64,000 nt of DNA, taken from contig CAOJKK010000001.1 of NCBI GenBank assembly GCA_948437895.1, forward strand, positions 27,163 to 91,162. Direction: 5' to 3'. Position 1 is the stretch's first letter. Each line of letters opens with the position of its first letter. This DNA comes from an uncultured Clostridium sp. GTDB taxonomy: Bacteria; Bacillota; Clostridia; TANB77; CAG-508. Positions 4,750 to 60,055 of the stretch are shown here, piece by piece. The notes below the pieces were generated by a model, which was not told the origin of the DNA, made no database searches, and saw only the letters and a program-made list of their open reading frames with translations. The translations under genes and the position numbers were made by a program.

Positions 4750-7104
4750 TTACAATAGGCTTTCTATGCTCTTCCAGATTTTATCTCCACTTGCTCCTGG
4801 TATTGCTGATTTATATCTCTTCTCAAAGTCTTCTCTTGTCTTTGGATTATTCCATCCACTTCTTCCTATCATGCCAGCTAATTTTATCGCATAGGCTCCT
4901 TCTTGTGGTGATAATCCTTCTTTCATCGCTGATTTTATTTTACTTGTATCTGTTATTCCATTATCTCTATATGTTTGCACTGCATTTCTTATTGCTGTCG
5001 TTCTTTCTCTTCCTTTTTTCCCACTTTCTAATTCACGATCATTTAGCATTCCTCTAAATTCATCACTTTCATAAAATGCCTTATCCATTTTTAAATTGTT
5101 ATATTCGTCTTGTCCTATCGCTCCTTCTTTAAATGTCTCTCTTAAGTTCTTCTCTCCTGATAACAACTTATCTCCTGCATAGTTTGCTCCCATATATCCT
5201 GCTCCCGCTCCTGCTGCTCCATATTGCATTGCTTTTCCTAAATCTCCTGTTGCTATTCCTGCTGCTAATCCTGCACTTCCTAATGTTGCTGCTCCTAATG
5301 CCCCTAGTGCTCCTCTTCTTGCCATCCTTCCTACTGATTTTGCTGTGTTCTTATTTATATATTTTCTTCTTACTGCACTTACTCCATTTCTTATGCTTCT
5401 TCCTCCTCCACTCAAGGCATTTCCCATTGTTGCTCCATGAGTGTTCGCTGTTCTTGCTGATCCAAATCCTCCTCCTGAACTTCCCCCTGAAGCTCCTGAT
5501 GAACTTCCTCCTGCTGTTGTTGAATTTGATCCTCCTGTTCCTATTGTATTTGCATTTGAACTTGCCATTCTTGTAGCTTTAGTTCCTTCTCCTCCTGTTG
5601 CTTTTCCTGCTGCTTGTTTTCCACTTCTATGTCCCATTTTGTTTATTGCATTCATTATTAATGCTCCTCCTGCTGCTGCTCCTATCTGGCCTGCTGAACT
5701 TGCTTTCTCAAATCCAAACATCTTTCTAAAGAACTTCTCTGCTGGAAGTAAGAATCCTATTGCTACTACTGCATATAGTGGATTTTGACTTACTAAACTA
5801 GTTGCTGATGCTACAAACATATAATATAGTAATAAATGCATTGGTTGTAATAGAGCATTAAATGTATATTCTCTTACCCACATTGAAAATGCTTGAGCCT
5901 GCCCATCCTTAATTTTATCTAGTGGATATGTTAATGCTATTAATGGTGCTATCATTGTAAAGAATGCCATATATAACAACCTCTTTAAATATTGTATAGT
6001 AAACATTACTGTATATATAACTAAGACCATATACATAAGCATTTCTGGAAATATCTCACTAAAATCAGTACTATCTCCAACATTATTTCTTAAGTTAGAC
6101 ATTAACACATCTTCTCCATTTGGCCCAATTATGTTTATTGATAAAACATCTGTAATCTTTTGAGTTATTTCTGTTATAAATAGCATTATGTATTGTAAAA
6201 CAAATAAAATACATATTGCTGCTACCCAATCTGCTATCATTTTTTTGTATTTCGCTTTTTCTTGTCCTGTACTACTTACTAATATTCTTATTCCTATATA
6301 TACAAGCACTGATAATAGCCCTACTAATGCTATTGCTCTTAATGCTTTATACCATGTTGCCACTGTATCTTGTAATAGGTAAGCTGAAGAAGCTTTCGTA
6401 ACTGTTTTGTTAAACGTTGTATTTAATCTATATAAGTTCCATTTATTACCTGTACTTGATGTTATAGCATCTATTAACTTTATACCAGAAACGAACCCTC
6501 CTATAAGATTTACATTTGCATAATGCACTTGCAAAAAGTCTTTTACTTCAAGTTTTGCATTTGTATTTATTGCTGTGTACTTTTGTCCATTATATTCCCA
6601 AGTATATATTATATGAGCTTTAGCTGTAGTTAGTTCATACCAGTTATTATCTGTTATCTTTGTATAGCAATATACTTCATCTTTATTAAAATTAGGATCA
6701 CTAAATCCAGGCAAAGAGTCTTTACTATACTCACCCAACTCATCCCATGAAAAGTTCTCATCTGCTATTGTCTCTTTATCACTTTCTTTTGCATTGATAA
6801 AATTAACTTTTAATCCTGCAACCTTCCCTGAAAATATTATTCCAGGTGAATATCTTATGAAAAATGAGTCACTTTCTATTTCTGATATTCCACCATATTT
6901 TATATCTCCTACTCCAGTAAAATATTTTTGTAGCCCCTTTATTACCAAATCAGAAACTGCACATAATAATTGTGATATTGGCTTAAATAATGCTCCTCCA
7001 ACATCTGCTTGTGAAGCTACTGGTGTTATAAAGTTAAATGACATTACTAACAGTATTGCTATTATTATCTTTTTAGTTGTTTCTTTACTTGTAAAAAATT
7101 TCAT
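4750..7104 (-). CDS. VirB6/TcpH/ConG-like polytopic T4SS membrane protein
   Basis: 784 aa; signal peptide, ~5-6 TM helices in the central region, Gly/Ser-rich low-complexity stretch, C-terminal soluble domain; sits between VirB4-like ATPase and hydrolase as in Tn916 orf15/ICEBs1 conG. Confidence 0.6.
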   Translation of the reverse strand: MKFFTSKETTKKIIIAILLVMSFNFITPVASQADVGGALFKPISQLLCAVSDLVIKGLQKYFTGVGDIKYGGISEIESDSFFIRYSPGIIFSGKVAGLKVNFINAKESDKETIADENFSWDELGEYSKDSLPGFSDPNFNKDEVYCYTKITDNNWYELTTAKAHIIYTWEYNGQKYTAINTNAKLEVKDFLQVHYANVNLIGGFVSGIKLIDAITSSTGNKWNLYRLNTTFNKTVTKASSAYLLQDTVATWYKALRAIALVGLLSVLVYIGIRILVSSTGQEKAKYKKMIADWVAAICILFVLQYIMLFITEITQKITDVLSINIIGPNGEDVLMSNLRNNVGDSTDFSEIFPEMLMYMVLVIYTVMFTIQYLKRLLYMAFFTMIAPLIALTYPLDKIKDGQAQAFSMWVREYTFNALLQPMHLLLYYMFVASATSLVSQNPLYAVVAIGFLLPAEKFFRKMFGFEKASSAGQIGAAAGGALIMNAINKMGHRSGKQAAGKATGGEGTKATRMASSNANTIGTGGSNSTTAGGSSSGASGGSSGGGFGSARTANTHGATMGNALSGGGRSIRNGVSAVRRKYINKNTAKSVGRMARRGALGALGAATLGSAGLAAGIATGDLGKAMQYGAAGAGAGYMGANYAGDKLLSGEKNLRETFKEGAIGQDEYNNLKMDKAFYESDEFRGMLNDRELESGKKGRERTTAIRNAVQTYRDNGITDTSKIKSAMKEGLSPQEGAYAIKLAGMIGRSGWNNPKTREDFEKRYKSAIPGASGDKIWKSIESLL

Positions 7105-9105: not shown

Positions 9106-10267
9106 CAGACTCTACCTCCTCTTCTTTTGTGTTTTCTTTTTTAATTCTTTTTACAGCCTCTTTTGCTACATCTTTTCCAACATAATCTTTATTTTCCTTA
9201 ACTATCAATTCAGCTAGTTCTTGAACTAGTTGATCGAAATTTTGCTCTTTCTTCTCAACTATTTTTTGTCTTTCTGATTTAACTTCATCTACTTTTTGTC
9301 TTGCTAACTCTAGAGCTTTTTCCTCTACCGTTTTATTTATTGCTTCCATTTTCTTGTCAAGTACATCTGGTGCCGTAGAGTAAAGTTCTCCATATCCAGC
9401 CCTAAGAGCCTTATCAATTCCATATGTTTCTGATTCATCTCTGTTATATGCAACATATAGCAATTGTGCTAAATCGTTTGAATCCATTACTCTGCATTTC
9501 ATACTACATGCAAATAGAGTTCTTGTTATTGATTGTGCTCTTGTATATAATTCAGAAAATATCATATTCTTTTTCTCTTCTTCATCTAGAAAATTACTTC
9601 CTAGTTCTGAAGCATAATATGGAATTATTATGTAATAATGTTTTCTAAGTACATTTTTATTTAAGCTCATGTTTTCAATATTTGCAACTATATCTTGTCC
9701 ATAATCTAATAAGTTTTGTTGTCTTGCAATTTCAAGTCTAACTTCTTCTAGATCTCTTCTGTCATATCCACCAGCTTGTAACATCTTATTATATTGATTT
9801 TTTCTTCTCTCTAATTCATCTTTTATATCATTTATTTTTTTATTATAATTTTCTATACTGCTTCCAATATTAATTGTTCTTGTTTGAGTATAAATTTGTA
9901 TTGGATGCCTCAAAGTATTTAAGAATTGAATAAATCCTTGTTCAACAGAAACCTTTTCCATTTCTGACATTAAATCATAATTTATTCCCTCACATTCAAT
10001 ACCCATTAAGTATCTTGTCCCATTGTTTTGAACAATCATATTATCTTCTATTTTATCAAACTCCATAAAGTCAAATACAGAAAGTTTAGTATATCCACCT
10101 TGTGTAGAAGTAGTACTTGCTTGACTACTTTTACTTTCACCATTGCTTTCTTTTGTTGATTTTTCATTTTTACTCTTAACAGACATTTGCCAATATATAA
10201 ATGCTAATACTAGGATTGCGAAAAATAAAATTACTACGGCAATTGTTAATATTTGCATTAAATCCAT
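9050..10267 (-). CDS. membrane-anchored T4SS-associated protein with VirB4-N-terminal-like segment and K/E-rich coiled-coil tail; possibly the frameshifted N-terminal part of the VirB4-like gene
   Basis: N-terminal TM (ILTIAVVILFFAILVLAFIYW), segment NMIVQNNGTRYLMGIECEGINYDLMSEME resembling the pre-ATPase region of VirB4 proteins, long charged C-terminal tail. The tail runs into an A6 run where a 1-nt deletion would fuse it in frame with the downstream ATPase ORF. Confidence 0.5.
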   Translation of the reverse strand: MDLMQILTIAVVILFFAILVLAFIYWQMSVKSKNEKSTKESNGESKSSQASTTSTQGGYTKLSVFDFMEFDKIEDNMIVQNNGTRYLMGIECEGINYDLMSEMEKVSVEQGFIQFLNTLRHPIQIYTQTRTINIGSSIENYNKKINDIKDELERRKNQYNKMLQAGGYDRRDLEEVRLEIARQQNLLDYGQDIVANIENMSLNKNVLRKHYYIIIPYYASELGSNFLDEEEKKNMIFSELYTRAQSITRTLFACSMKCRVMDSNDLAQLLYVAYNRDESETYGIDKALRAGYGELYSTAPDVLDKKMEAINKTVEEKALELARQKVDEVKSERQKIVEKKEQNFDQLVQELAELIVKENKDYVGKDVAKEAVKRIKKENTKEEEVESDVKKEKKTTRTRRTRENA

Positions 10268-28107: not shown

Positions 28108-28172
28108 ATAATCCTTTAGGACGATTCAGGACAGTCCCCTTTTGTCCTTGCTATACAAAAGAGGGACAGTCC
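28108..28172. repeat. GC-rich palindromic repeat related to family A (two direct GGACAGTCCC cores within ACGATTC...GAATCGT inverted repeat)
   Basis: Between convergent genes; shares GTCCC/GGGAC core; abuts the stop codon of the minus-strand gene. Confidence 0.55.
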
Positions 28173-28679
28173 CTAGAATCGTTTATTAATTTTACCTAAA
28201 AATTTCCCTATGTCGTCTGAATCAATTGTTCCATAATTCAAATGCATATAGTTATTGTTTTTAAAGTCAATTTGCCATTCTCCAATAAAATAGCAATCCC
28301 CTCCATTTACTTTCCTACCCAATTCTAATGTAAGAAGTCTTGGTATTCTTTTAGTTAATACCAATGCTAAACATACAGCTTGTCCATAGTCAGTTAATGG
28401 TTTAGGCATAATGAAATTAAATACTTTCATTTCATTATCTAAGATAGAGTATGATATATTAAAATCCTCTGGTTTTATTTCTCTATCTAAATCAATAATA
28501 TCTATTTCATCAGTATATTCTAATTCTAATTTTACTTCATTCCATAATTTACAAAAATACTGTTTCAGAGTTTCTGGTCCTTCATTTAATAATAAATTAG
28601 TTTTCTCCCAATCTTCGAATATTAAGTCCCTTATTTTTTCATGTGCCATAATATAATGAATACTTGATTTGTTTTCCAT
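28173..28679 (-). CDS. hypothetical protein
   Basis: 168 aa ORF, no recognisable motif. Confidence 0.4.
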   Translation of the reverse strand: MENKSSIHYIMAHEKIRDLIFEDWEKTNLLLNEGPETLKQYFCKLWNEVKLELEYTDEIDIIDLDREIKPEDFNISYSILDNEMKVFNFIMPKPLTDYGQAVCLALVLTKRIPRLLTLELGRKVNGGDCYFIGEWQIDFKNNNYMHLNYGTIDSDDIGKFLGKINKRF

Positions 28680-35903: not shown

Positions 35904-35962
35904 ATATGCATATTCTGGGACAAAATGTCCCAGTCAGAAACGTCCCTTTTGGGACATTAGTT
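35904..35962. repeat. GC-rich palindromic repeat, family A, copy 1 (TGGGACAAAATGTCCCA + GTCCCTTTTGGGAC hairpins)
   Basis: ~90% identical to 46124..46182; between convergent purN and ftsH; its terminal TTA supplies the ftsH stop codon. Confidence 0.7.
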
Positions 35963-54607: not shown

Positions 54608-55150
54608 TTATTTAGACATTACCTCTTTTAAATCTTTCCAAAAATCTATTTTCTTAGTATCATCTCTAAGTAGTGCTGCTGGATGGAATGTTGGCAAATA
54701 CTTTATTCCATCTCTTTCAAACCATTTCCCTCTACTTGCTGTTATTCCATATTCTTTCCCTAGTATGTTTTTTAACGCTACACTACCTAATAGTATAATT
54801 ATTTCTGGATTTACTAATTTTATTTGGGCTTCTAAATATTCTCTGCAACAATCTGCTTCATCATACTCTGGATTTCTATTATTAGGTGGTCTGCATTTTA
54901 CTATATTTGCTATATATACTTCTTCTCTTTTTATTCCTATCCCTTGAAATGCTTTGTCCATCAACTGACCAGCTTTCCCTACAAAAGGTATTCCTTGTAT
55001 ATCTTCATCTGCTCCTGGTCCCTCGCCTATAAGCATTATTCTTGCATTCTTATTCCCTGTACCAATTACTACATTGTGTCTATTATTACACAATTTGCAT
55101 TTAGTACAATTTTTACATTCATTTTCTAACTCTTCCCATGTTTGATACAT
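54608..55150 (-). CDS. uracil-DNA glycosylase, family 4
   Basis: GEGPGADEDIQGIPFVGKAGQLM family-4 UDG motif and N-terminal Cys cluster. Confidence 0.8.
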   Translation of the reverse strand: MYQTWEELENECKNCTKCKLCNNRHNVVIGTGNKNARIMLIGEGPGADEDIQGIPFVGKAGQLMDKAFQGIGIKREEVYIANIVKCRPPNNRNPEYDEADCCREYLEAQIKLVNPEIIILLGSVALKNILGKEYGITASRGKWFERDGIKYLPTFHPAALLRDDTKKIDFWKDLKEVMSK

Positions 55151-55164
55151 ATTTTACTCCTTTT

Positions 55165-55256
55165 CTTGTAAGGGGACGCATCTTTCCCCTTGGTCTTTCT
55201 CTAAGGATAAGATACATCCCCATCCTTATCATCTGGTGATGTCAGTTTTCATATTT
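55165..55256 (-). repeat. ~90-bp structured intergenic element, family C, copy 2
   Basis: CTTGTAAGGGGACGCATCTTTCCCCTTGGTCT...GGATAAGATACATCCCCATCCTTATCATCTGGTGATGTCAGTTTTC, about 90% identical to copy 1. Confidence 0.65.
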
Positions 55257-55262
55257 TATTTA

Positions 55263-56678
55263 CTATAATAAACACATTAATGCTGTGTTTCTTCCCGCTT
55301 CTATTCCGTCTTTTCTATATGAATGGATTATATCACTATTACAAAAACTACAAATTTTACTATCAACAATGTTTTCTTCTAATATTCCTTGTTTTAATAG
55401 TAGGTTTTTATTTATTTCTACAGTATTTATGAAGTAACTATTAGTTTCTTTGTTGTATTTAATAATCTCATCTATATTATTCATAGATTTAAACTCATTA
55501 TAGAATAGGTCTCTTACATCTTTTTGAACCTCAAAATGACACTCTCTAATTGTTGGACCAATTATGCATATTATATCTTCTGTATTACAGCTATATCTCT
55601 TTTTCATAAATTCTATTGCTTTTTCTGCTATTCTCTTTACAGTTCCTTGCCATCCTGAATGAATATTTCCAATAATTCTTTTATTCTTATCAAATAAATA
55701 TATCGGCGTACAATCTGCGAATGTTAAAGATAGTATTTTATTCTTTTTGTCAGTTACCAGTCCATCTACATCTTCTAATTCTTTAGGAAATACTCCAATC
55801 TCTTCCGCTACTTCTTTCACATTGTTTGTATGTGTTTGATATGGTCTTACTATATTCTTGCTATCTAGTTTTAATAATTCACATGCTAATTTGTAATTAC
55901 TATCAAATTTTTCTTTTCCCTCTTTGTATGTGTCATTACTACCAAAATCAAGTGGCTTTAATGTAAATGCATGCGATAAAACATCACTGTATTTTAGTAA
56001 TCTTTTGAACTGCAAAATTCTTGAGTTTTCATCTTGAATTATAACTACTTCATCATTTATTATTTTACTTCCTATTATTTCTTTTATATCTTCTACTATT
56101 TTTTCTAAACTGTATTTATTATTATTTACAATTACAATATTAGAATTTTTAATATAGAAATCATTTTCAGGTTGAGCACTTATTCTATCTGTAGCACAGT
56201 CTTCATCTATATTATCCCTTAGACAAATTCTTTCCATTTTTATATCTTCATCTGCTATCACTGATATTACTATATCACACATCTCATTTAATTTACTTTC
56301 AATTAAAAGAGGTGCGTCAATTATAACTGTTTTATCTCTATTTAAACTTACTCTTTTACTTATCTCTTCTACTACATATTTGAATGTAAGTAAATTTAAC
56401 ATTTCTCTTTTTTCTTTGTCTGCAAATATTATACTTGCAAGTTTTGATTTATCTATTTCTCCGTTTTCTAATAAAATGCCTTTTCCAAACTCTTTTACTA
56501 TTTCTTTAAAATAAACTTCACCTGGCATAGACATCTCTTTTACTACTTTATCTGCATCTATAACACATGTATCAGGGTCTGTCCCTTTTGCGACATTTTG
56601 TCGCATTGGGACTGTCCCCAATGCACTGCTTATTGATGTTTTACCGCTTCCAGAGTTCCCAGTTATACCTATTATCAT
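55263..56678 (-). CDS. coaE: fused dephospho-CoA kinase / YfiH(PgeF)-family purine nucleoside phosphorylase-like protein, with a palindromic repeat inserted in frame after the P-loop
   Basis: N-terminus MIIGITGNSGSGKTS (CoaE P-loop), ...VIDADK; C-terminal half has PgeF motifs (PYQTHTNNV, LTFADCTPIYLFD, GNIHSGWQG, CSFC). Confidence 0.75.
   Translation of the reverse strand: MIIGITGNSGSGKTSISSALGTVPMRQNVAKGTDPDTCVIDADKVVKEMSMPGEVYFKEIVKEFGKGILLENGEIDKSKLASIIFADKEKREMLNLLTFKYVVEEISKRVSLNRDKTVIIDAPLLIESKLNEMCDIVISVIADEDIKMERICLRDNIDEDCATDRISAQPENDFYIKNSNIVIVNNNKYSLEKIVEDIKEIIGSKIINDEVVIIQDENSRILQFKRLLKYSDVLSHAFTLKPLDFGSNDTYKEGKEKFDSNYKLACELLKLDSKNIVRPYQTHTNNVKEVAEEIGVFPKELEDVDGLVTDKKNKILSLTFADCTPIYLFDKNKRIIGNIHSGWQGTVKRIAEKAIEFMKKRYSCNTEDIICIIGPTIRECHFEVQKDVRDLFYNEFKSMNNIDEIIKYNKETNSYFINTVEINKNLLLKQGILEENIVDSKICSFCNSDIIHSYRKDGIEAGRNTALMCLL
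56575..56622. repeat. intragenic copy of the GTCCC/GGGAC - TGCGACA/TGTCGCA palindromic element, inserted in frame in coaE
   Basis: GGGTCTGTCCCTTTTGCGACATTTTGTCGCATTGGGACTGTCCCCA; nested inverted repeats; translates to SALGTVPMRQNVAKGTDPD between the P-loop and the VIDADK motif. Confidence 0.7.
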
Positions 56679-56707: not shown

Positions 56708-56765
56708 TATGACTAGATAATATCATAAAAGCAGATAATTTTCAATTAATTATCTGCTCTATATA
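56708..56765 (-). terminator. ~57-bp direct repeat copy 1 containing an 11-bp-stem terminator hairpin (AGCAGATAATT-TTCAATT-AATTATCTGCT)
   Basis: Identical apart from 2 mismatches to 58965..59020; downstream of the GNAT gene. Confidence 0.65.
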
Positions 56766-56778
56766 TTTTAATTTGTCT

Positions 56779-57291
56779 TCATATTCCAAATACTTTATCA
56801 TATTCAACTATTCCTTTTATTGCTTTTGCATTTTCATTTAGCTTTATAGCCATAAAGAATTCATCTTCCACATCAAATGGTGCTTTTATATTATATTTGC
56901 TTGCAAGAATATACCCTGATTTAGAATAATATTTATTACTTCCTAAAACAACAGAATAATTATAATTTAACTGTTTTGCAATTCTATGCCCTTCAGTAAT
57001 TAATCTCATACCGATACCTTTTCTTTGGTATTCTGGTAATACTGCCAATGGTGCTAGCGCTAATTCTGTACTATCCCCAATTTTAATTTTAGTAAATAAA
57101 ATATAACCTATAATTTTATTTTCATATACTGCTACTAACGATAATTCAGGAATAAATGAATTACTTTCTCTTAATTTAATAACTAAATCTTGTTCATTTC
57201 CATCCCTATGCTCTGCTTTCTCAAATGCAATTTTTATAACATTATATACTTGTTTATAATCATTCATATTTTCTTGTCTTATTTCTAACAC
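56779..57291 (-). CDS. GNAT family N-acetyltransferase
   Basis: QRKGIGMRLI acetyl-CoA binding motif. Confidence 0.8.
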   Translation of the reverse strand: MLEIRQENMNDYKQVYNVIKIAFEKAEHRDGNEQDLVIKLRESNSFIPELSLVAVYENKIIGYILFTKIKIGDSTELALAPLAVLPEYQRKGIGMRLITEGHRIAKQLNYNYSVVLGSNKYYSKSGYILASKYNIKAPFDVEDEFFMAIKLNENAKAIKGIVEYDKVFGI

Positions 57292-57316
57292 TTTAATTAC
57301 TCCTTAAAATTGTAAA

Positions 57317-57787
57317 TCATCTTTGTTTATTATCTTTCCACTCATGATATAAAATATCTTTTAAAACTAGCATACTGTCTAAAGGATTAAAACCATTTTC
57401 TTCTTGTAATTTAATAAACATTTCTCTAATTTTACTTGCATACTCTTCTATATTTACTTGCTTTTGATATTTTGCAAGTACTGGATATTTCTTGCTCCAA
57501 GCATTTGTCCAATCTATCTTTGCTTCTTTTTCTTCGTTAGTATTTTTAATAACTTGTTCAATTTCTTTTAAGTCTACATCAAATTCAATTAGCTCATCTA
57601 AAGATAAATTATAAAGTTTTGCTAATTTCTTTGCTTGATAAATATCTGGTACAGTTTCATCTGTTTCCCACTTTGAAATGGTTTGTCTACTTACACCTAA
57701 TTTTTCAGCAACTGTTTCTTGCGATAATCCTACTTTTTTCCTTGATTGAAATAAATTATTTCCTAAATTCATTTTATCCACCTCCAA
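57317..57787 (-). CDS. XRE-family HTH transcriptional regulator
   Basis: LSQETVAEKLGVSRQTISKWE helix-turn-helix. Confidence 0.75.
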   Translation of the reverse strand: MEVDKMNLGNNLFQSRKKVGLSQETVAEKLGVSRQTISKWETDETVPDIYQAKKLAKLYNLSLDELIEFDVDLKEIEQVIKNTNEEKEAKIDWTNAWSKKYPVLAKYQKQVNIEEYASKIREMFIKLQEENGFNPLDSMLVLKDILYHEWKDNKQR

Positions 57788-57891
57788 ATTAAGTGTACAG
57801 TATTAATCAATTCTTTTCTATCAATTATCCCTTACAATTCTGCTATTTTTATTAACATATTCAACTCTACAAATTGTAATTTATATTTACT

Positions 57892-58350
57892 TCATATTAT
57901 TTTTTCCATAATATAATTTGTCAAAAATAATCCTTTTCGTTCAACTTGTTGCTCTTTTATAACTTTATAACCTCTTTTTTCAAAAAATGTTTTTGCTGTA
58001 ATAGAAGATTGTGTAATAACTTTACCTTTTAATATTTTTTGTTCCAATCTATTACAGATCGCTGTTGCAACTCCTCTATTTTGATAATCTTTATGAACAA
58101 ATAATCTATCTAAATATCCAATTTCATCTATATCTCCAAAACCAATTATAGTATTATTTTCTTCAGCAACAATGGAATAATGTTTCAATAAAGATTCTCC
58201 CCATACTTCTATATCAATGTCTTTTCTCACCCACGCATTAACTTGCTCTTGACTATAATCTTTTATATTCACTGAATGAACAGTATTAAAAAACAATTCA
58301 AATACTTCTTTACAGTCCTCTGGTCTATATTCTCTTATTCTCATTTGCAC
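57892..58350 (-). CDS. GNAT family N-acetyltransferase
   Basis: YQNRGVATAICNRL motif. Confidence 0.75.
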   Translation of the reverse strand: MQMRIREYRPEDCKEVFELFFNTVHSVNIKDYSQEQVNAWVRKDIDIEVWGESLLKHYSIVAEENNTIIGFGDIDEIGYLDRLFVHKDYQNRGVATAICNRLEQKILKGKVITQSSITAKTFFEKRGYKVIKEQQVERKGLFLTNYIMEKII

Positions 58351-58402
58351 TAAAAACTCCTCAACATCTTACTATTTATCTAATTTCTATAAATTTCAGT
58401 TT

Positions 58403-58840
58403 CTATAATACGTTATTTTCCACCAAATTATTAAATTTTATATATACTTCCTCATACTTCTTTTTTAAATTTATAGGCTTTAATGTCCTATCAGTAAAGC
58501 AATGTTTTGACCATGCTTCTATAACTTCCTTCCCTGTCTTTTTATCTATCATTTTGTAAGATACCTTCATTCTAACGCCATTAAATTCTATGATTTTTGG
58601 ACTGATAATTATTATATTTCCACTTGTAACATGATATTTGTATTTACAATAAATTTCTAGTGTTGGAATTGTTAATCCTATTTCTTCCATCTTTTCCATA
58701 GAGATATTTTGATGATCCATCCATCTGCATCTTGCCTCTTCTAAAAATCTAACATAATTTGAGTGATGTACAACTCCCATCTTATCAGTTTCATAATAGT
58801 TTATCTTTCTTTCATATTTAAAATCCATAATGTCCTCCAA
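58403..58840 (-). CDS. hotdog-fold acyl-CoA thioesterase (YbgC/4HBT-like)
   Basis: YYETDKMGVVHHSNYVRFLEEAR motif. Confidence 0.7.
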   Translation of the reverse strand: MEDIMDFKYERKINYYETDKMGVVHHSNYVRFLEEARCRWMDHQNISMEKMEEIGLTIPTLEIYCKYKYHVTSGNIIIISPKIIEFNGVRMKVSYKMIDKKTGKEVIEAWSKHCFTDRTLKPINLKKKYEEVYIKFNNLVENNVL

Positions 58841-58852
58841 TTACTCCTATAT

Positions 58853-58945
58853 TTATCTTAATACTTCCAATAATTCTGTTACTGTTTTTGGTACATAGCT
58901 TATTGGTGTTTTACCATTTCTAGAGTTTTCAATTATACATATATT
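58853..58945 (-). pseudogene. remnant of a coaD 3' end (about 30 codons)
   Basis: Minus-strand translation ...NICIIENSRNGKTPISYVPKTVTELLEVLR* parallels the real CoaD C-terminus ...DKYVPKAVAELLESLR*; nucleotide similarity to 61761..61800. Confidence 0.5.
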
Positions 58946-58964
58946 CCTTTTAATTTATGTATTG

Positions 58965-59020
58965 TATGACCAGATAATATCATAAGAGCAGATAATTTTC
59001 AATTAATTATCTGCTCTATA
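58965..59020 (-). terminator. ~57-bp direct repeat copy 2 with the same terminator hairpin
   Basis: TATGACCAGATAATATCATAAGAGCAGATAATTTTCAATTAATTATCTGCTCTATA. Confidence 0.65.
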
Positions 59021-59032
59021 TTAAGTAGTTAA

Positions 59033-60004
59033 TTATCTTTCAACTATTTCTAATCCACACATATTACTTGTATCGCAAAAAATAATCTTTTTTTCTTTTT
59101 TTAAAGTTAAAGTAATTGAAGAAGAAATACTTTCAAAAATATCTTTTGTCATTTTTCCTTTGACTGGTGCAGCCAATTTAAGCCCTCTGCTATATTCTGA
59201 TTTTATATTTAAGCTGTATAAACCTTTTTTTAGTGTTATATTGAACCAATCTTCTTTAATATCACATTCTATTAATTTAGCATTATTATAAGTAGTAAAT
59301 TTAAATTCTTTATTATCAATTAGTAAAACACATATAAGTCCTTTAAATGTAAATAATTTAAAAGGTATATCTGCTACTGACAGCATAAAACTAGCATTTG
59401 TCTTCTGAAAATCATTGCCTTGACACCAAATGTATGATTTCGGAAATGAACATCCCCAATCTTTTTCGATATAACCTTTATCATTATTAAAGTAAATCGT
59501 TTCATCATTTATATTAATACAACCATTTATGGTATTTTGCATACTAATAATTCCATGATTACATTCCATAAATGGGATATATGAGAAAGGTCCCATTATA
59601 TTCGGCATAAAAATATTAGTATTAATATTCTTGCTATCAGAATATTTTATATGTCCATGTATTTTAAGATTTTGAGATTCATCTTCTATGTTTATATTAA
59701 TATCTTCTTTTGAAAAACTATTATTACCGATTTTAATACAAAAAGGGTTATAATTAAATTGAAAATCTTTAATATTGTAATTTACAAAATAAGACATATT
59801 GTTAGTAATTATTTGTATAAAGGCTTTAGCGCCTTTATCATCAACATTAATTCCTGGAATAAAAGAAATTCCTCTTTGAAAATTTGTATTTTTAAAATAC
59901 CAACCCTCAAAGTAGTTTTTATTTTTATTCAAATATTTCTCGCCCTGAAATAGCTCTGTATTTTTCATTAATAATAATTTGTTCATATTATGTATTATTT
60001 TCAA
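59033..60004 (-). CDS. hypothetical protein
   Basis: 323 aa ORF, no assigned motif. Confidence 0.45.
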   Translation of the reverse strand: MKIIHNMNKLLLMKNTELFQGEKYLNKNKNYFEGWYFKNTNFQRGISFIPGINVDDKGAKAFIQIITNNMSYFVNYNIKDFQFNYNPFCIKIGNNSFSKEDININIEDESQNLKIHGHIKYSDSKNINTNIFMPNIMGPFSYIPFMECNHGIISMQNTINGCININDETIYFNNDKGYIEKDWGCSFPKSYIWCQGNDFQKTNASFMLSVADIPFKLFTFKGLICVLLIDNKEFKFTTYNNAKLIECDIKEDWFNITLKKGLYSLNIKSEYSRGLKLAAPVKGKMTKDIFESISSSITLTLKKEKKIIFCDTSNMCGLEIVER

Positions 60005-60055
60005 AATATAGAATAATATTCTAATTGAATAAAATCTGTCATATTATATCTTTTA

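Follow-up and report, generated by a model that had tools for sequence, protein, structure and literature searches.

The interval between coaD and coaE in the window (the whole 64,000-nt stretch of DNA that was analyzed) probably holds two alternative fillings of a single gene-turnover hotspot, cargo A and cargo B, brought into a head-to-tail arrangement by illegitimate recombination. On the coding (minus) strand, the order is coaD with its 3′ end (X1), cargo A, one copy of a repeat element (R2), a chimera of a coaE 5′ remnant (Y2) and a coaD 3′ remnant (X2), cargo B, the other copy of the repeat (R1) and finally coaE with its 5′ end (Y1) (Table 1). The ABC gene of cargo A starts 25 nt past the coaD stop, and the 90% cluster of coaD has 58 members. 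Because the interiors of cargo A and cargo B have nothing in common, a plain tandem duplication is excluded. Genes between 50.8 and 63.6 kb (purD, hypotheticals, UDG, coaE-pgeF, the cargo, coaD and addB) include no integrase, transposase or other recombinase. The GC content of the cassettes (23 to 28%) matches that of the surroundings, so it gives no hint of a distant origin and fits exchange among relatives. No special function is evident for the cargo genes (thioesterase, GNATs, XRE, ABC transporter). Interpretation of the XRE-GNAT pair as a toxin-antitoxin system was rejected, as the 170-aa GNAT occurs in the relative L017 without an XRE gene. An insertion sequence, composite transposon or MITE was also rejected: there is no transposase in or beside the cassette, which is bounded by direct repeats containing pieces of host genes.

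Table 1. Features of the coaD-coaE interval, in the order of the coding strand (positions are those of the window)
Feature	Position	Strand	Evidence or remarks
coaD (pantetheine-phosphate adenylyltransferase), left core gene of the hotspot	61761..62237	-	TIGR01510, 152.7 bits (cutoff 103.3); Pfam CTP_transf_like
X1, functional copy of the duplicated coaD 3′ end (last 45 nt)	61761..61805	-	
Cargo block A, whole	59033..61735	-	
Cargo A: ABC ATPase	60860..61735	-	Pfam
Cargo A: ABC-2 permease	60056..60847	-	Pfam
Cargo A: 317-aa tocopherol-cyclase-like ORF	59033..59986	-	Pfam
R2	58967..59035	-	Hairpin with 13-bp stem at 58985..59017, overlapping a promoter-like site; covariance model 85.8 bits
R2 promoter-like site	-35 at 59002; -10 ending 58974		-35 TTGAAA in the hairpin loop; -10 TATTAT with upstream TG
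Y2, decayed copy of coaE codons 3-17 (P-loop region)	58898..58942	-	82% identical to 56628..56672
X2, decayed copy of the last 14 coaD codons and stop, joined in frame to Y2	58853..58897	-	86% identical to 61756..61805
Cargo block B, whole	56779..58828	-	
Cargo B: YbgC/FadM-like acyl-CoA thioesterase (hotdog, 4HBT/YbgC-like)	58403..58828	-	Pfam and NCBIfam
Cargo B: GNAT, 150 aa	57892..58344	-	Pfam and NCBIfam
Cargo B: XRE-family regulator (HTH)	57317..57772	-	Pfam and NCBIfam
Cargo B: GNAT, 170 aa	56779..57291	-	Pfam and NCBIfam
R1, immediately upstream of coaE	56710..56778	-	Hairpin 56730..56758; covariance model 88.6 bits
R1 promoter-like site	-35 at 56745; -10 ending 56717		
coaE-pgeF fusion (dephospho-CoA kinase and peptidoglycan editing factor), right core gene of the hotspot	55263..56678	-	Pfam CoaE and Cu-oxidase_4; TIGR00152, 116.9 bits (cutoff 65.55); TIGR00726, 148.4 bits (cutoff 141.15)
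Y1, functional copy of coaE codons 3-17	56628..56672	-	

The structure that carries this reading is the chimera between the two cargo blocks. The initial annotation had noticed a coaD remnant of about 30 codons (58853..58945). The match to the coaD 3′ end is real (86% identity over 50 nt), although it accounts for only the 14 codons and stop of X2, the remainder being coaE codons 3 to 17. The coaE part (ICIIENSRNGKTPIS) is fused in frame to the coaD part (YVPKTVTELLEVLR, followed by the stop), which places the novel joint between 58898 and 58897, where coaE codon 17 meets coaD codon −15. This order is opposite to the native adjacency of coaD and coaE and is thus the signature of a head-to-tail joint. 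Similarly, the 57-bp direct repeat reported earlier proved real but is only part of a longer homology: beyond R, the two copies share a spacer of ∼50 nt down to the coaE ribosome-binding site and then a 45-nt stretch from the 5′ end of coaE. The duplication thus took in a block larger than R. A 12- to 13-nt deletion in copy 2 took out the coaE ribosome-binding site and ATG, and seven of the eight differences between Y2 and Y1 are changes from G/C to A/T, resembling decay in place. X2 carries TTGGAAG, as do the coaD alleles of L021, L028 and L002, where X1 has TTAGAAT; likewise, its flank (AGTAATT) is that of other alleles and differs from the flank of X1 (ATTTAAG). Judged by these two to three informative sites and a short flank, X2 may not derive from the coaD end of this genome itself.

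The position of the joint bears directly on how the cassette arrived. It lies ∼100 nt downstream of R2, in coding remnants outside R, with homology to R, spacer and coaE 5′ end on one side and to the coaD 3′ end on the other. Since it joins both flanks head to tail at this distance from R2, the duplication of R is a by-product of the duplication of the R-spacer-coaE-5′ block. The original proposal, in which homologous recombination between terminator copies already present captured or duplicated the cassette, is contradicted by this position and is now very improbable. It could draw on the 96% identity of the R copies over 57 nt and on hairpins at rearrangement endpoints (the terminator of the 170-aa GNAT in L017 shares AGAGCAGAT with R at the point where homology to the window ends), but exchange between R copies cannot make a fusion of coaE 5′ to coaD 3′, and the homology passes through R into coaE. 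Recombination between R1 and R2 that deletes the cassette may occur in principle, given a perfect block of 35 nt within the 57 nt; no deletion or amplification allele of the cassette was seen.

Many metagenomic contigs of relatives end just after coaD or inside R, which indicates that assemblers struggle at this locus, and one could imagine two strain variants wrongly chained through R. Such an artifact is extremely unlikely: no assembler can make an in-frame chimera that is decayed and bears a deletion and substitutions of its own, and an independent ENA assembly (L016) spans positions 58263..59533 of the window, including the junction, with two mismatches over 1,271 nt. The junction is real. 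The decay of the scar (∼15%) suggests long-standing stability of the arrangement.

From this scar we infer both the pathway of recombination and its direction. Cargo A (ABC ATPase, permease, 317-aa ORF and R) would represent one allele of the interval and cargo B (thioesterase, GNAT, XRE, GNAT and R) another, brought together by recombination between this chromosome and DNA of a related strain. One end would have paired by ordinary homology, in coaE and beyond if B was the incoming allele, or in coaD and addB if A was. The other end would have been joined illegitimately, with codon 17 of coaE from one allele fused to codon −15 of coaD from the other. Equivalently, a fragment that stretched from the coaD 3′ end to the coaE 5′ end could have circularized and then undergone a single homologous crossover. 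Either route would duplicate the R-spacer-coaE-5′ block together with the coaD 3′ end, which is why the cassette is now bracketed by copies of R; the repeats would be a product of the event and not its substrate. The coding remnants have decayed toward A/T and lost the ribosome-binding site and ATG. No microhomology of 3 to 10 nt was found at the joint (ATAAGC/TATGTA, compared with GATAAA/TATGTG and ATAAGC/AGTGCA, shares no bases); it may have been erased by decay or may never have existed. Sliding-window identity along coaE and coaD against relatives gave no clear homologous crossover point. Neither parental allele was found intact among the contexts of relatives, be it coaD-A-R-coaE without B or coaD followed by the thioesterase block, R and coaE.

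Comparison with relatives shows how variable the site is. The order addB-coaD, then coaE/pgeF-UDG-purD, is kept in L001 to L003, L006, L017, L021 and L028, with flanks ∼90 to 97% identical at the nucleotide level among relatives. What lies between coaD and coaE differs among close relatives, with at least eight distinct contents when the empty site is counted. In the empty site (L006) the coaE ribosome-binding site directly follows the coaD stop. Elsewhere the interval holds noncoding palindromic inserts (L001, L003), a 163-aa membrane ORF (L002), GNAT-GNAT-AraC (the L017 group), hydrolase-DUF5131 (L018, L032, L033), XRE-IS (L021 to L026), another gene (L028/L029), a 69-aa gene (L004/L005) or a Zn-ribbon protein (L037/L038). 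An acquired 2.2-kb cassette at a site that differs between genomes, as first suggested, is supported by this presence/absence comparison, and in this uncultured lineage of Clostridia the coaD-coaE interval is a hotspot of gene turnover. Pieces of cargo A and of cargo B recur separately in other genomes: L017 has, in its coaD-coaE islet, a GNAT with 96% amino-acid identity to the 170-aa GNAT of cargo B, and the 3′ end of ORF323 is tied to R both by a remnant adjoining R and coaE in L017 and by the order ORF323-ferritin-R in L020. The arrangement of R1, spacer and coaE is also found in L017, L037 and L007.

The empty site also invites a different history, in which a local tandem duplication of ∼100 to 200 nt across the coaD 3′ end and coaE 5′ end came first and A plus R and B plus R were then inserted independently into the two gaps. 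With X and Y just 0 to 15 nt apart in the empty site, a short duplication would give exactly the joint observed, and the site accepts many different insertions. We nevertheless regard this as quite unlikely: R and the ∼50-nt spacer are homologous in both copies but absent from the empty site, so two arrivals with identical right-hand ends would be needed, and X2 resembles a coaD allele other than X1. The joining of two alleles is preferred.

The two copies of R are direct repeats, as originally described, at 56708..56764 and 58965..59021, 2,257 nt apart and with 2 mismatches in 57 positions. The 64-kb window contains exactly two copies of a 31-nt core (0 expected from shuffles), and a covariance model of R recovered only these two as strong matches there, the next and unrelated one scoring 25.6 bits. 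The mismatch rate in R (2/57) is lower than in the adjoining duplicated remnants (18/112; Fisher P = 0.02), so R is better conserved than its neighbors. Outside the window, R was found on other metagenomic contigs, where the genes preceding it include a VOC gene, an EamA transporter and a tet-type gene; in every context it lies directly 3′ of a co-oriented stop codon. Its 25-nt core is identical across 11 contexts, the copies having been gathered by exact match to that core. The original proposal was to be given up if R proved a common terminator of many unrelated loci, without synteny variation. Half of this holds, as R does follow unrelated genes on other contigs; however, it is not common in the window, and synteny around it varies. 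A permissive Rfam scan of 50 to 64 kb gave two sub-threshold chance matches, and R belongs to no described RNA family. A longer form of R in L008 has inverted ends (ACAAATTAC/GTAATTTGT), with no definable target-site duplication.

The hairpin in each repeat copy was confirmed (11 to 13 bp). Its stem of 12 to 13 bp has only three G-C pairs and is followed by a U-rich run (UUUUAUGAUAUU in R1, UCUUAUGAUAUU in R2); fold z-scores of the copies are −3.7 and −4.8, and a terminator consensus scan flagged the hairpin on the plus strand only. Covariation in the hairpin was uninformative because the copies had been chosen by their exact 25-nt core; only single-sided changes were seen, at the stem base. 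Both copies also contain TTGAAA-17-TATTAT (with the upstream TG, TTGAAA-17-TGnTATTAT), 10 of 12 matches to a Sigma-70/SigA-type promoter, and the pattern is kept in 9 of 11 R copies; L010, in which R has no co-oriented gene after it, has lost it. On the strength of these consensus matches and their conservation, R is likely a terminator-like hairpin overlapping a near-consensus promoter-like site. It would act as terminator for the preceding gene and promoter for the next, R2 ending transcription of the 317-aa ORF and driving the thioesterase-GNAT(-XRE-GNAT) block, and this predicted dual role is the likely reason that both copies are near-intact while the coding remnants decayed. R would then be a compact terminator-plus-promoter that gives newly acquired genes ready-made transcription signals, and it could serve as a genetic part for Clostridia.

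The recurrence of R raises the question of whether R itself is a recombination site, or a portable element between cassettes, acted on by a dedicated recombinase or by recurrent exchange within R, so that the window would hold two cassettes of an integron-like array. Several observations point this way. On five other metagenomic contigs the identical 25-nt core and conserved flanks follow unrelated genes, and R is a point at which flanks are exchanged (L008 and L009 agree on the right side but not on the left, L010 and L011 on the left but not on the right). L008 has a single VOC gene between two R copies, its extended R has the terminal inverted repeats given above, and the right end of that element (ATAGTAATTTGT) recurs behind the coaD stop of several alleles. 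One deletion in L017 has an endpoint exactly at the hairpin base. Nevertheless, we consider a role of R as the site unlikely for this locus: the novel joint of the window lies in coding remnants away from R, no recombinase gene is encoded nearby, R lacks the attC core of integrons (GTTRRRY) and has a predicted promoter of its own, and there are just two copies in 64 kb. Extended R had no BLAST match in plasmid or phage collections, and its core had no exact match in viral contigs. Neither ACAAATTAC nor AAATAGTAATTT was enriched in the window, so they cannot be called a genome-wide site. By the same measure it is improbable that the extended R of ∼100 nt is a portable module combining terminator, promoter and recombination linker, with which an uncultured Clostridia lineage shuffles individual genes or small operons between loci and strains; if it were, it would amount to an integron-like cassette economy without an integron integrase, with coaD-coaE as one docking point.

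With head-to-tail joining of two alleles as the preferred explanation, the locus is of interest because remnants of both flanking core genes survive at the joint, which allows a base-by-base reconstruction of the event: apparently, two accessory-gene alleles that are alternatives at one hotspot were stacked rather than exchanged. To our knowledge, few natural cases show allele stacking this directly. The locus also holds a trap for annotation, as an apparent coaD fragment is in fact a coaE-coaD chimera, and repeats resembling recombination substrates appear to be by-products. This is ordinary, if unusually legible, genome plasticity and leaves current concepts unchanged.

Among known systems, integron attC cassette arrays resemble the locus in their co-oriented genes with a recurring imperfect-palindrome element between them, and R occurs after unrelated genes on other contigs with its flanks swapping. 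In contrast to integrons, there is no integrase here, R lacks attC cores (RYYYAAC ... GTTRRRY) and is conserved in sequence and not just in structure, it holds a predicted promoter, the joint is outside R, and the cassettes comprise several genes. Hot spots of horizontal gene transfer between core genes (Oliveira et al. 2017, PMC5635113) are likewise short core-gene intervals that concentrate accessory turnover, most alleles having no obvious mobile-element gene. The coaD-coaE interval is a hot spot in that sense, with positionally conserved bounding genes and many gene sets plus an empty state. It differs in being a very tight site, with cargo starting within ∼5 to 12 nt of the coaD stop, and in the recurrent R element that forms the right edge of many alleles.

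For the joining event itself, both candidate pathways have been demonstrated experimentally. An Escherichia coli conjugation study (PMC3240628) documents homology-facilitated illegitimate recombination (see also de Vries & Wackernagel 2002, Prudhomme et al. 2002 and Meier & Wackernagel 2003, as cited in PMC5361080) as well as circularization followed by a single crossover, the latter yielding the same tandem structure. In homology-facilitated illegitimate recombination, as proposed here, one incoming end is anchored by homology in a conserved flank and the other is joined illegitimately, so that foreign genes end up beside the anchor and the new joint falls in unrelated sequence. The present case differs in that it is read from a decayed scar with no visible microhomology at the joint, and in that the illegitimate partner would be the other flank of the same locus, giving a head-to-tail pair of alleles and not a simple insertion. 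Type VI secretion effector-immunity arrays of Vibrio cholerae and orphan Rhs/CDI 3′ ends (PMC5361080), for which arrays a displacement model was proposed, also show successive modules stacked at one locus with orphan fragments of flanking genes left between modules, explained by an anchor of homology and an illegitimate end. Unlike those arrays, the cargo of the coaD-coaE interval is metabolic and regulatory and not made up of toxin-immunity pairs, and a single stacking event is visible, with remnants of both flanks preserved at its joint.

All genes between 54.6 and 63.6 kb lie on the minus strand, and assignment with Pfam and NCBIfam placed two unrelated gene blocks between coaD and coaE: cargo A (ABC ATPase, permease and a 317-aa ORF, “ORF323”) and cargo B (thioesterase, GNAT, XRE, GNAT). 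The gene downstream of these blocks encodes CoaE dephospho-CoA kinase and the peptidoglycan editing factor PgeF (YfiH/DUF152) as one 460-471-aa protein, a fusion kept in hundreds of Clostridia-like metagenomic proteins (homologues P0001-P0120).

Features of the coaD-coaE region and of the associated repeats (window coordinates unless a contig is named)
Feature	Position	Strand	Remark
addB-like nuclease	63617..62349	-	
~95-nt element, first copy	62238-62348	-	addB/coaD gap, upstream of coaD
coaD	62237..61761	-	above curated equivalog cut-off
ABC ATPase	61735..60860	-	cargo A
ABC-2 permease	60847..60056	-	cargo A
317-aa tocopherol-cyclase-like ORF (ORF323)	59986..59033	-	cargo A
Repeat copy R2	59035..58967	-	
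~95-nt coding remnant (chimera)	58942..58853	-	
YbgC-like thioesterase	58828..58403	-	cargo B
GNAT, 150 aa	58344..57892	-	cargo B
XRE regulator	57772..57317	-	cargo B
GNAT, 170 aa	57291..56779	-	cargo B
Repeat copy R1	56778..56710	-	
coaE-pgeF fusion gene	56678..55263	-	CoaE and PgeF each above curated equivalog cut-off
Palindrome in coaE	56570-56625	-	GGGGACAGTCCC..GCGACAAAATGTCGC..GGGACAGACCC; codons ~19-38
~95-nt element, second copy	55151-55262	-	coaE-pgeF/UDG gap, upstream of UDG
Uracil-DNA glycosylase (UDG)	55150..54608	-	
GGGAC(N)GTCCC-type palindromes	28128-28173, 35917-35931, 46138-46152, 55169-55192		intergenic
(AT)ACAAATTACAATTT / AAATTGTAATTTGT motif	57867-57886; L001 ~5118-5133, ~5236-5250; L003 ~9806-9822, ~9968-9985; L033 ~5000-5015		window site between GNAT150 and XRE, within cassette

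The two near-identical hairpin repeats reported in the initial annotation are real: R1 and R2 differ at 2 of 57 positions, share a perfect block of 35 nt and each carry a hairpin of 12-13 bp. The repeat core occurs twice in 64 kb (none expected), and a covariance-model search of the 64 kb returned no third copy. Homology does not stop at the hairpin and runs on through a ~25-nt spacer into the coaE 5′ end. Likewise, the remnant first read as a coaD 3′ end is one only over its final 45-50 nt (86% identity); the 45 nt preceding these (58898..58942) match the coaE 5′ end (56628..56672) at 82% identity. Translation of this chimera (...ICIIENSRNGKTPIS|YVPKTVTELLEVLR*) joins coaE codons 3-17 (P-loop region) in frame to the final 14 codons and stop of coaD, and this copy lacks the coaE RBS and ATG owing to a deletion of 12-13 nt. 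We regard the chimera as real because an independent ENA assembly (L016) has the same layout of ORF323 3′ end, R2, chimera and thioesterase; with 2 mismatches in 1271 nt, this matching junction rules out an assembly artefact.

With X denoting the coaD 3′ end and Y the R-spacer-coaE 5′ end (1, copy at the functional gene; 2, copy at the chimera), the locus reads X1, cargo A, Y2|X2, cargo B, Y1, and where coaD and coaE abut (contig L006) X precedes Y. Judged from this order, a Y|X joint marks a head-to-tail junction, derived from a tandem or a circle junction. Simple duplication of a segment was ruled out: the interiors of cargo A and cargo B have no similarity and are therefore not a duplicated segment. 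The locus is best described, from its layout, as two different fillings of one site arranged in tandem. Cassette insertion had been rightly recognized, and its mediation by terminator repeats is unsupported; R is a passenger in the event, or at most part of the homologous anchor, because the novel joint falls outside it.

In the event that we propose, DNA of a related strain carrying another filling would have recombined with this chromosome, one donor end using a homology anchor in a flanking core gene and the other forming an illegitimate joint between coaE codon 17 and coaD codon -15. No less possible is circularization of a fragment with coaD 3′ sequence at one end and coaE 5′ sequence at the other, which was then integrated by a single crossover within homology of R-coaE-5′ (or of the coaD 3′ end). 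Each outcome, an illegitimate end or circularization with crossover, is experimentally documented for linear DNA entering bacteria (PMC3240628), and the scar agrees with an illegitimate head-to-tail joint, formed by HFIR or by circle integration. The Y2|X2 joint shows no visible microhomology. A GC-rich palindromic insertion that is polymorphic in coaE lies 8 nt downstream of the joint; this closeness may be coincidence, or may mean that the DNA broke, or homology ended, at the palindrome. Since the structure is symmetric, either block, A or B, could equally be the resident one. The ~15% decay of the scar speaks for an old, stable arrangement. Later deletion via the R1/R2 repeats, of which no case was seen, is possible.

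The duplicated pieces differ in their likely origin. X2 has TTGGAAG, a state also found in L021, L028 and L002, where coaD of this genome has TTAGAAT, and the downstream flank of X2 contains AGTAATT, resembling ATAGTAATTT after coaD in L018, L021 and L028 (X1 is followed by ATTTAAG). Because two of the X2/X1 differences go against A/T mutation bias, X2 probably descends from the allele of another strain, on thin evidence of 2-3 sites and a short flank. Seven of the eight Y2/Y1 differences are G/C to A/T, and the divergence of Y2 looks like decay in place. Base composition of both cargos matches the surroundings, consistent with exchange among close relatives.

To describe the interval in relatives, each contig was anchored by its coaD protein (90% or more identity to that of the window) or its coaE-pgeF protein (66-89% identity); flanks of closer relatives had ~90-97% nucleotide identity. 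The site is empty in L006, with the coaE RBS directly after the coaD stop. Elsewhere it holds palindromic non-coding inserts (L001, L003), a 163-aa membrane ORF (L002), alpha/beta hydrolase plus DUF5131 (L018, L032, L033), a 71-aa XRE gene plus IS (L021-26), another gene (L028/29), an unknown gene, R and a 69-aa gene (L004/5), or a zinc-ribbon membrane protein plus R (L037/38). In L017 and several partial contigs it holds GNAT175, GNAT170 and AraC/GyrI, then an ORF323 3′ remnant, a ferritin-like gene-start remnant and R. Many relatives' assemblies break directly after coaD or within R, as expected of a strain-variable locus, and the interval is an HGT hotspot between core genes as defined previously (PMC5635113). 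Components of both cargos also occur apart in other contigs: the window GNAT170 and its L017 counterpart have 96% identity, and ORF323 lies with R in L020 (as ORF323-ferritin-R) and, as a remnant, with R-coaE in L017. In L020 the AraC-ORF323-ferritin-R series is intact, and the gene after it is not coaE. In L017 (12660-12820) a frameshifted ORF323 3′ remnant, together with the ferritin-like gene's RBS and ATG, is joined directly to the R-hairpin base; set against L020 1-1260, these remnants show that the islet has undergone nested deletions. In the empty-site relative (L006 7789-7880) the coaE 5′ end reads GNSGSRKNIDIGDSP...* in place of the P-loop GNSGSGKT, an apparent frameshift with the gene called from a later start (447 aa), which could be sequencing error or a damaged kinase domain.

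R has TTGAAA in the hairpin loop, then after 17 nt TATTAT preceded by TG, and a U-rich run follows the hairpin. Because of these -35/-10-like boxes and the hairpin with its U-rich run, R is plausibly the terminator of the upstream gene overlapping a strong promoter of the downstream gene; R2 would end ORF323 transcription and drive the thioesterase block. The window copies of R have diverged significantly less than the adjoining duplicated sequence (2/57 against 18/112 mismatches; P = 0.02), which argues that both are functional, or homogenized. Scanned with the 25-nt core, JGI metagenomes yielded five additional R-bearing contigs. The gene preceding R there encodes a VOC/glyoxalase protein, a small membrane protein (adjoining an XRE gene and IS110 transposase), an EamA transporter (twice), or a tet-type ribosomal-protection protein, with an ant(6)-like nucleotidyltransferase gene in its vicinity (by-eye calls from ORF translations). 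The last (L012 10394-10462, on 687-kb contig ERZ791891 NODE-1) has R immediately 3′ of a 640-aa tet(M)/tet(O)-type gene, with a PadR-like regulator and a VOC gene also nearby, again called by eye. R always has the orientation of the preceding gene. Conservation beyond the core covers ~18 nt on the left and the -10 region on the right. The sequences on either side of R swap between contigs: L008 and L009 have only the right side of R in common, and L010 and L011 only the left. L008 has one VOC gene between two R copies (1-60 and 510-600), each extended as ACAAATTACAAATTATAGGG, hairpin, then CTTTTATGATAATATACAAACTATAAAATAGTAATTTGT, with ends ACAAATTAC/GTAATTTGT forming inverted repeats. In L018, L021 and L028 the right end, ATAGTAATTTGT, is found after the stop codon of coaD as well. 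From this distribution, R is a dispersed module at cassette boundaries and not unique to the coaD-coaE locus. One deletion endpoint in L017 lies exactly at the R-hairpin base, and homology between L017 and the window downstream of GNAT170 stops at a common AGAGCAGAT; rearrangement endpoints of this lineage thus do fall at hairpin bases. There is a slight hint that R might act as a portable terminator-promoter linker organizing cassette exchange.

Other repeats accompany the region. GC-rich palindromes (GGGAC.GTCCC) appear to be a small dispersed family in this genome (GC ~26%), with six matches to GGGACAGTCCC in the window against 0.04 expected. One lies in frame within coaE just past the P-loop, putting ~21 residues in place of ~10 (+11 residues); the alleles of the window, L004, L017, L001 and L006 carry it, and the 460-aa alleles of L007, L037, L003 and L002 lack it. 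Palindromic elements insert into coding genes in Rickettsia, and the coaE palindrome resembles these. A ~95-nt element without an Rfam match begins GAAAACTGACATCACCAGAT and stops at the RBS of the next gene; its two copies (direct orientation, ~80% identity) enclose the whole coaD-islet-coaE segment, and it is missing from most relatives, where addB abuts coaD and the coaE-UDG gap is 22 nt. Gene boundaries of the variable regions repeatedly carry a motif, AAATTACAATTT, in the near-palindromic form (AT)ACAAATTACAATTT / AAATTGTAATTTGT, which resembles the extended R left end, lies on both sides of the non-coding coaD-coaE insert in L001 and L003, and is not enriched across the window overall.

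An integron was rejected, as there is no integrase among the genes between 50.8 and 63.6 kb and R, unlike attC sites, lacks attC cores, is conserved in sequence and contains a candidate promoter. A transposon or composite element was likewise rejected: there is no transposase, and the flanking repeats of the window cassette, unlike those of a composite transposon, include host gene fragments. A parallel to the proposed event is seen at Vibrio T6SS and Rhs loci, where stacked modules with orphaned gene ends have been explained by the same logic (PMC5361080).
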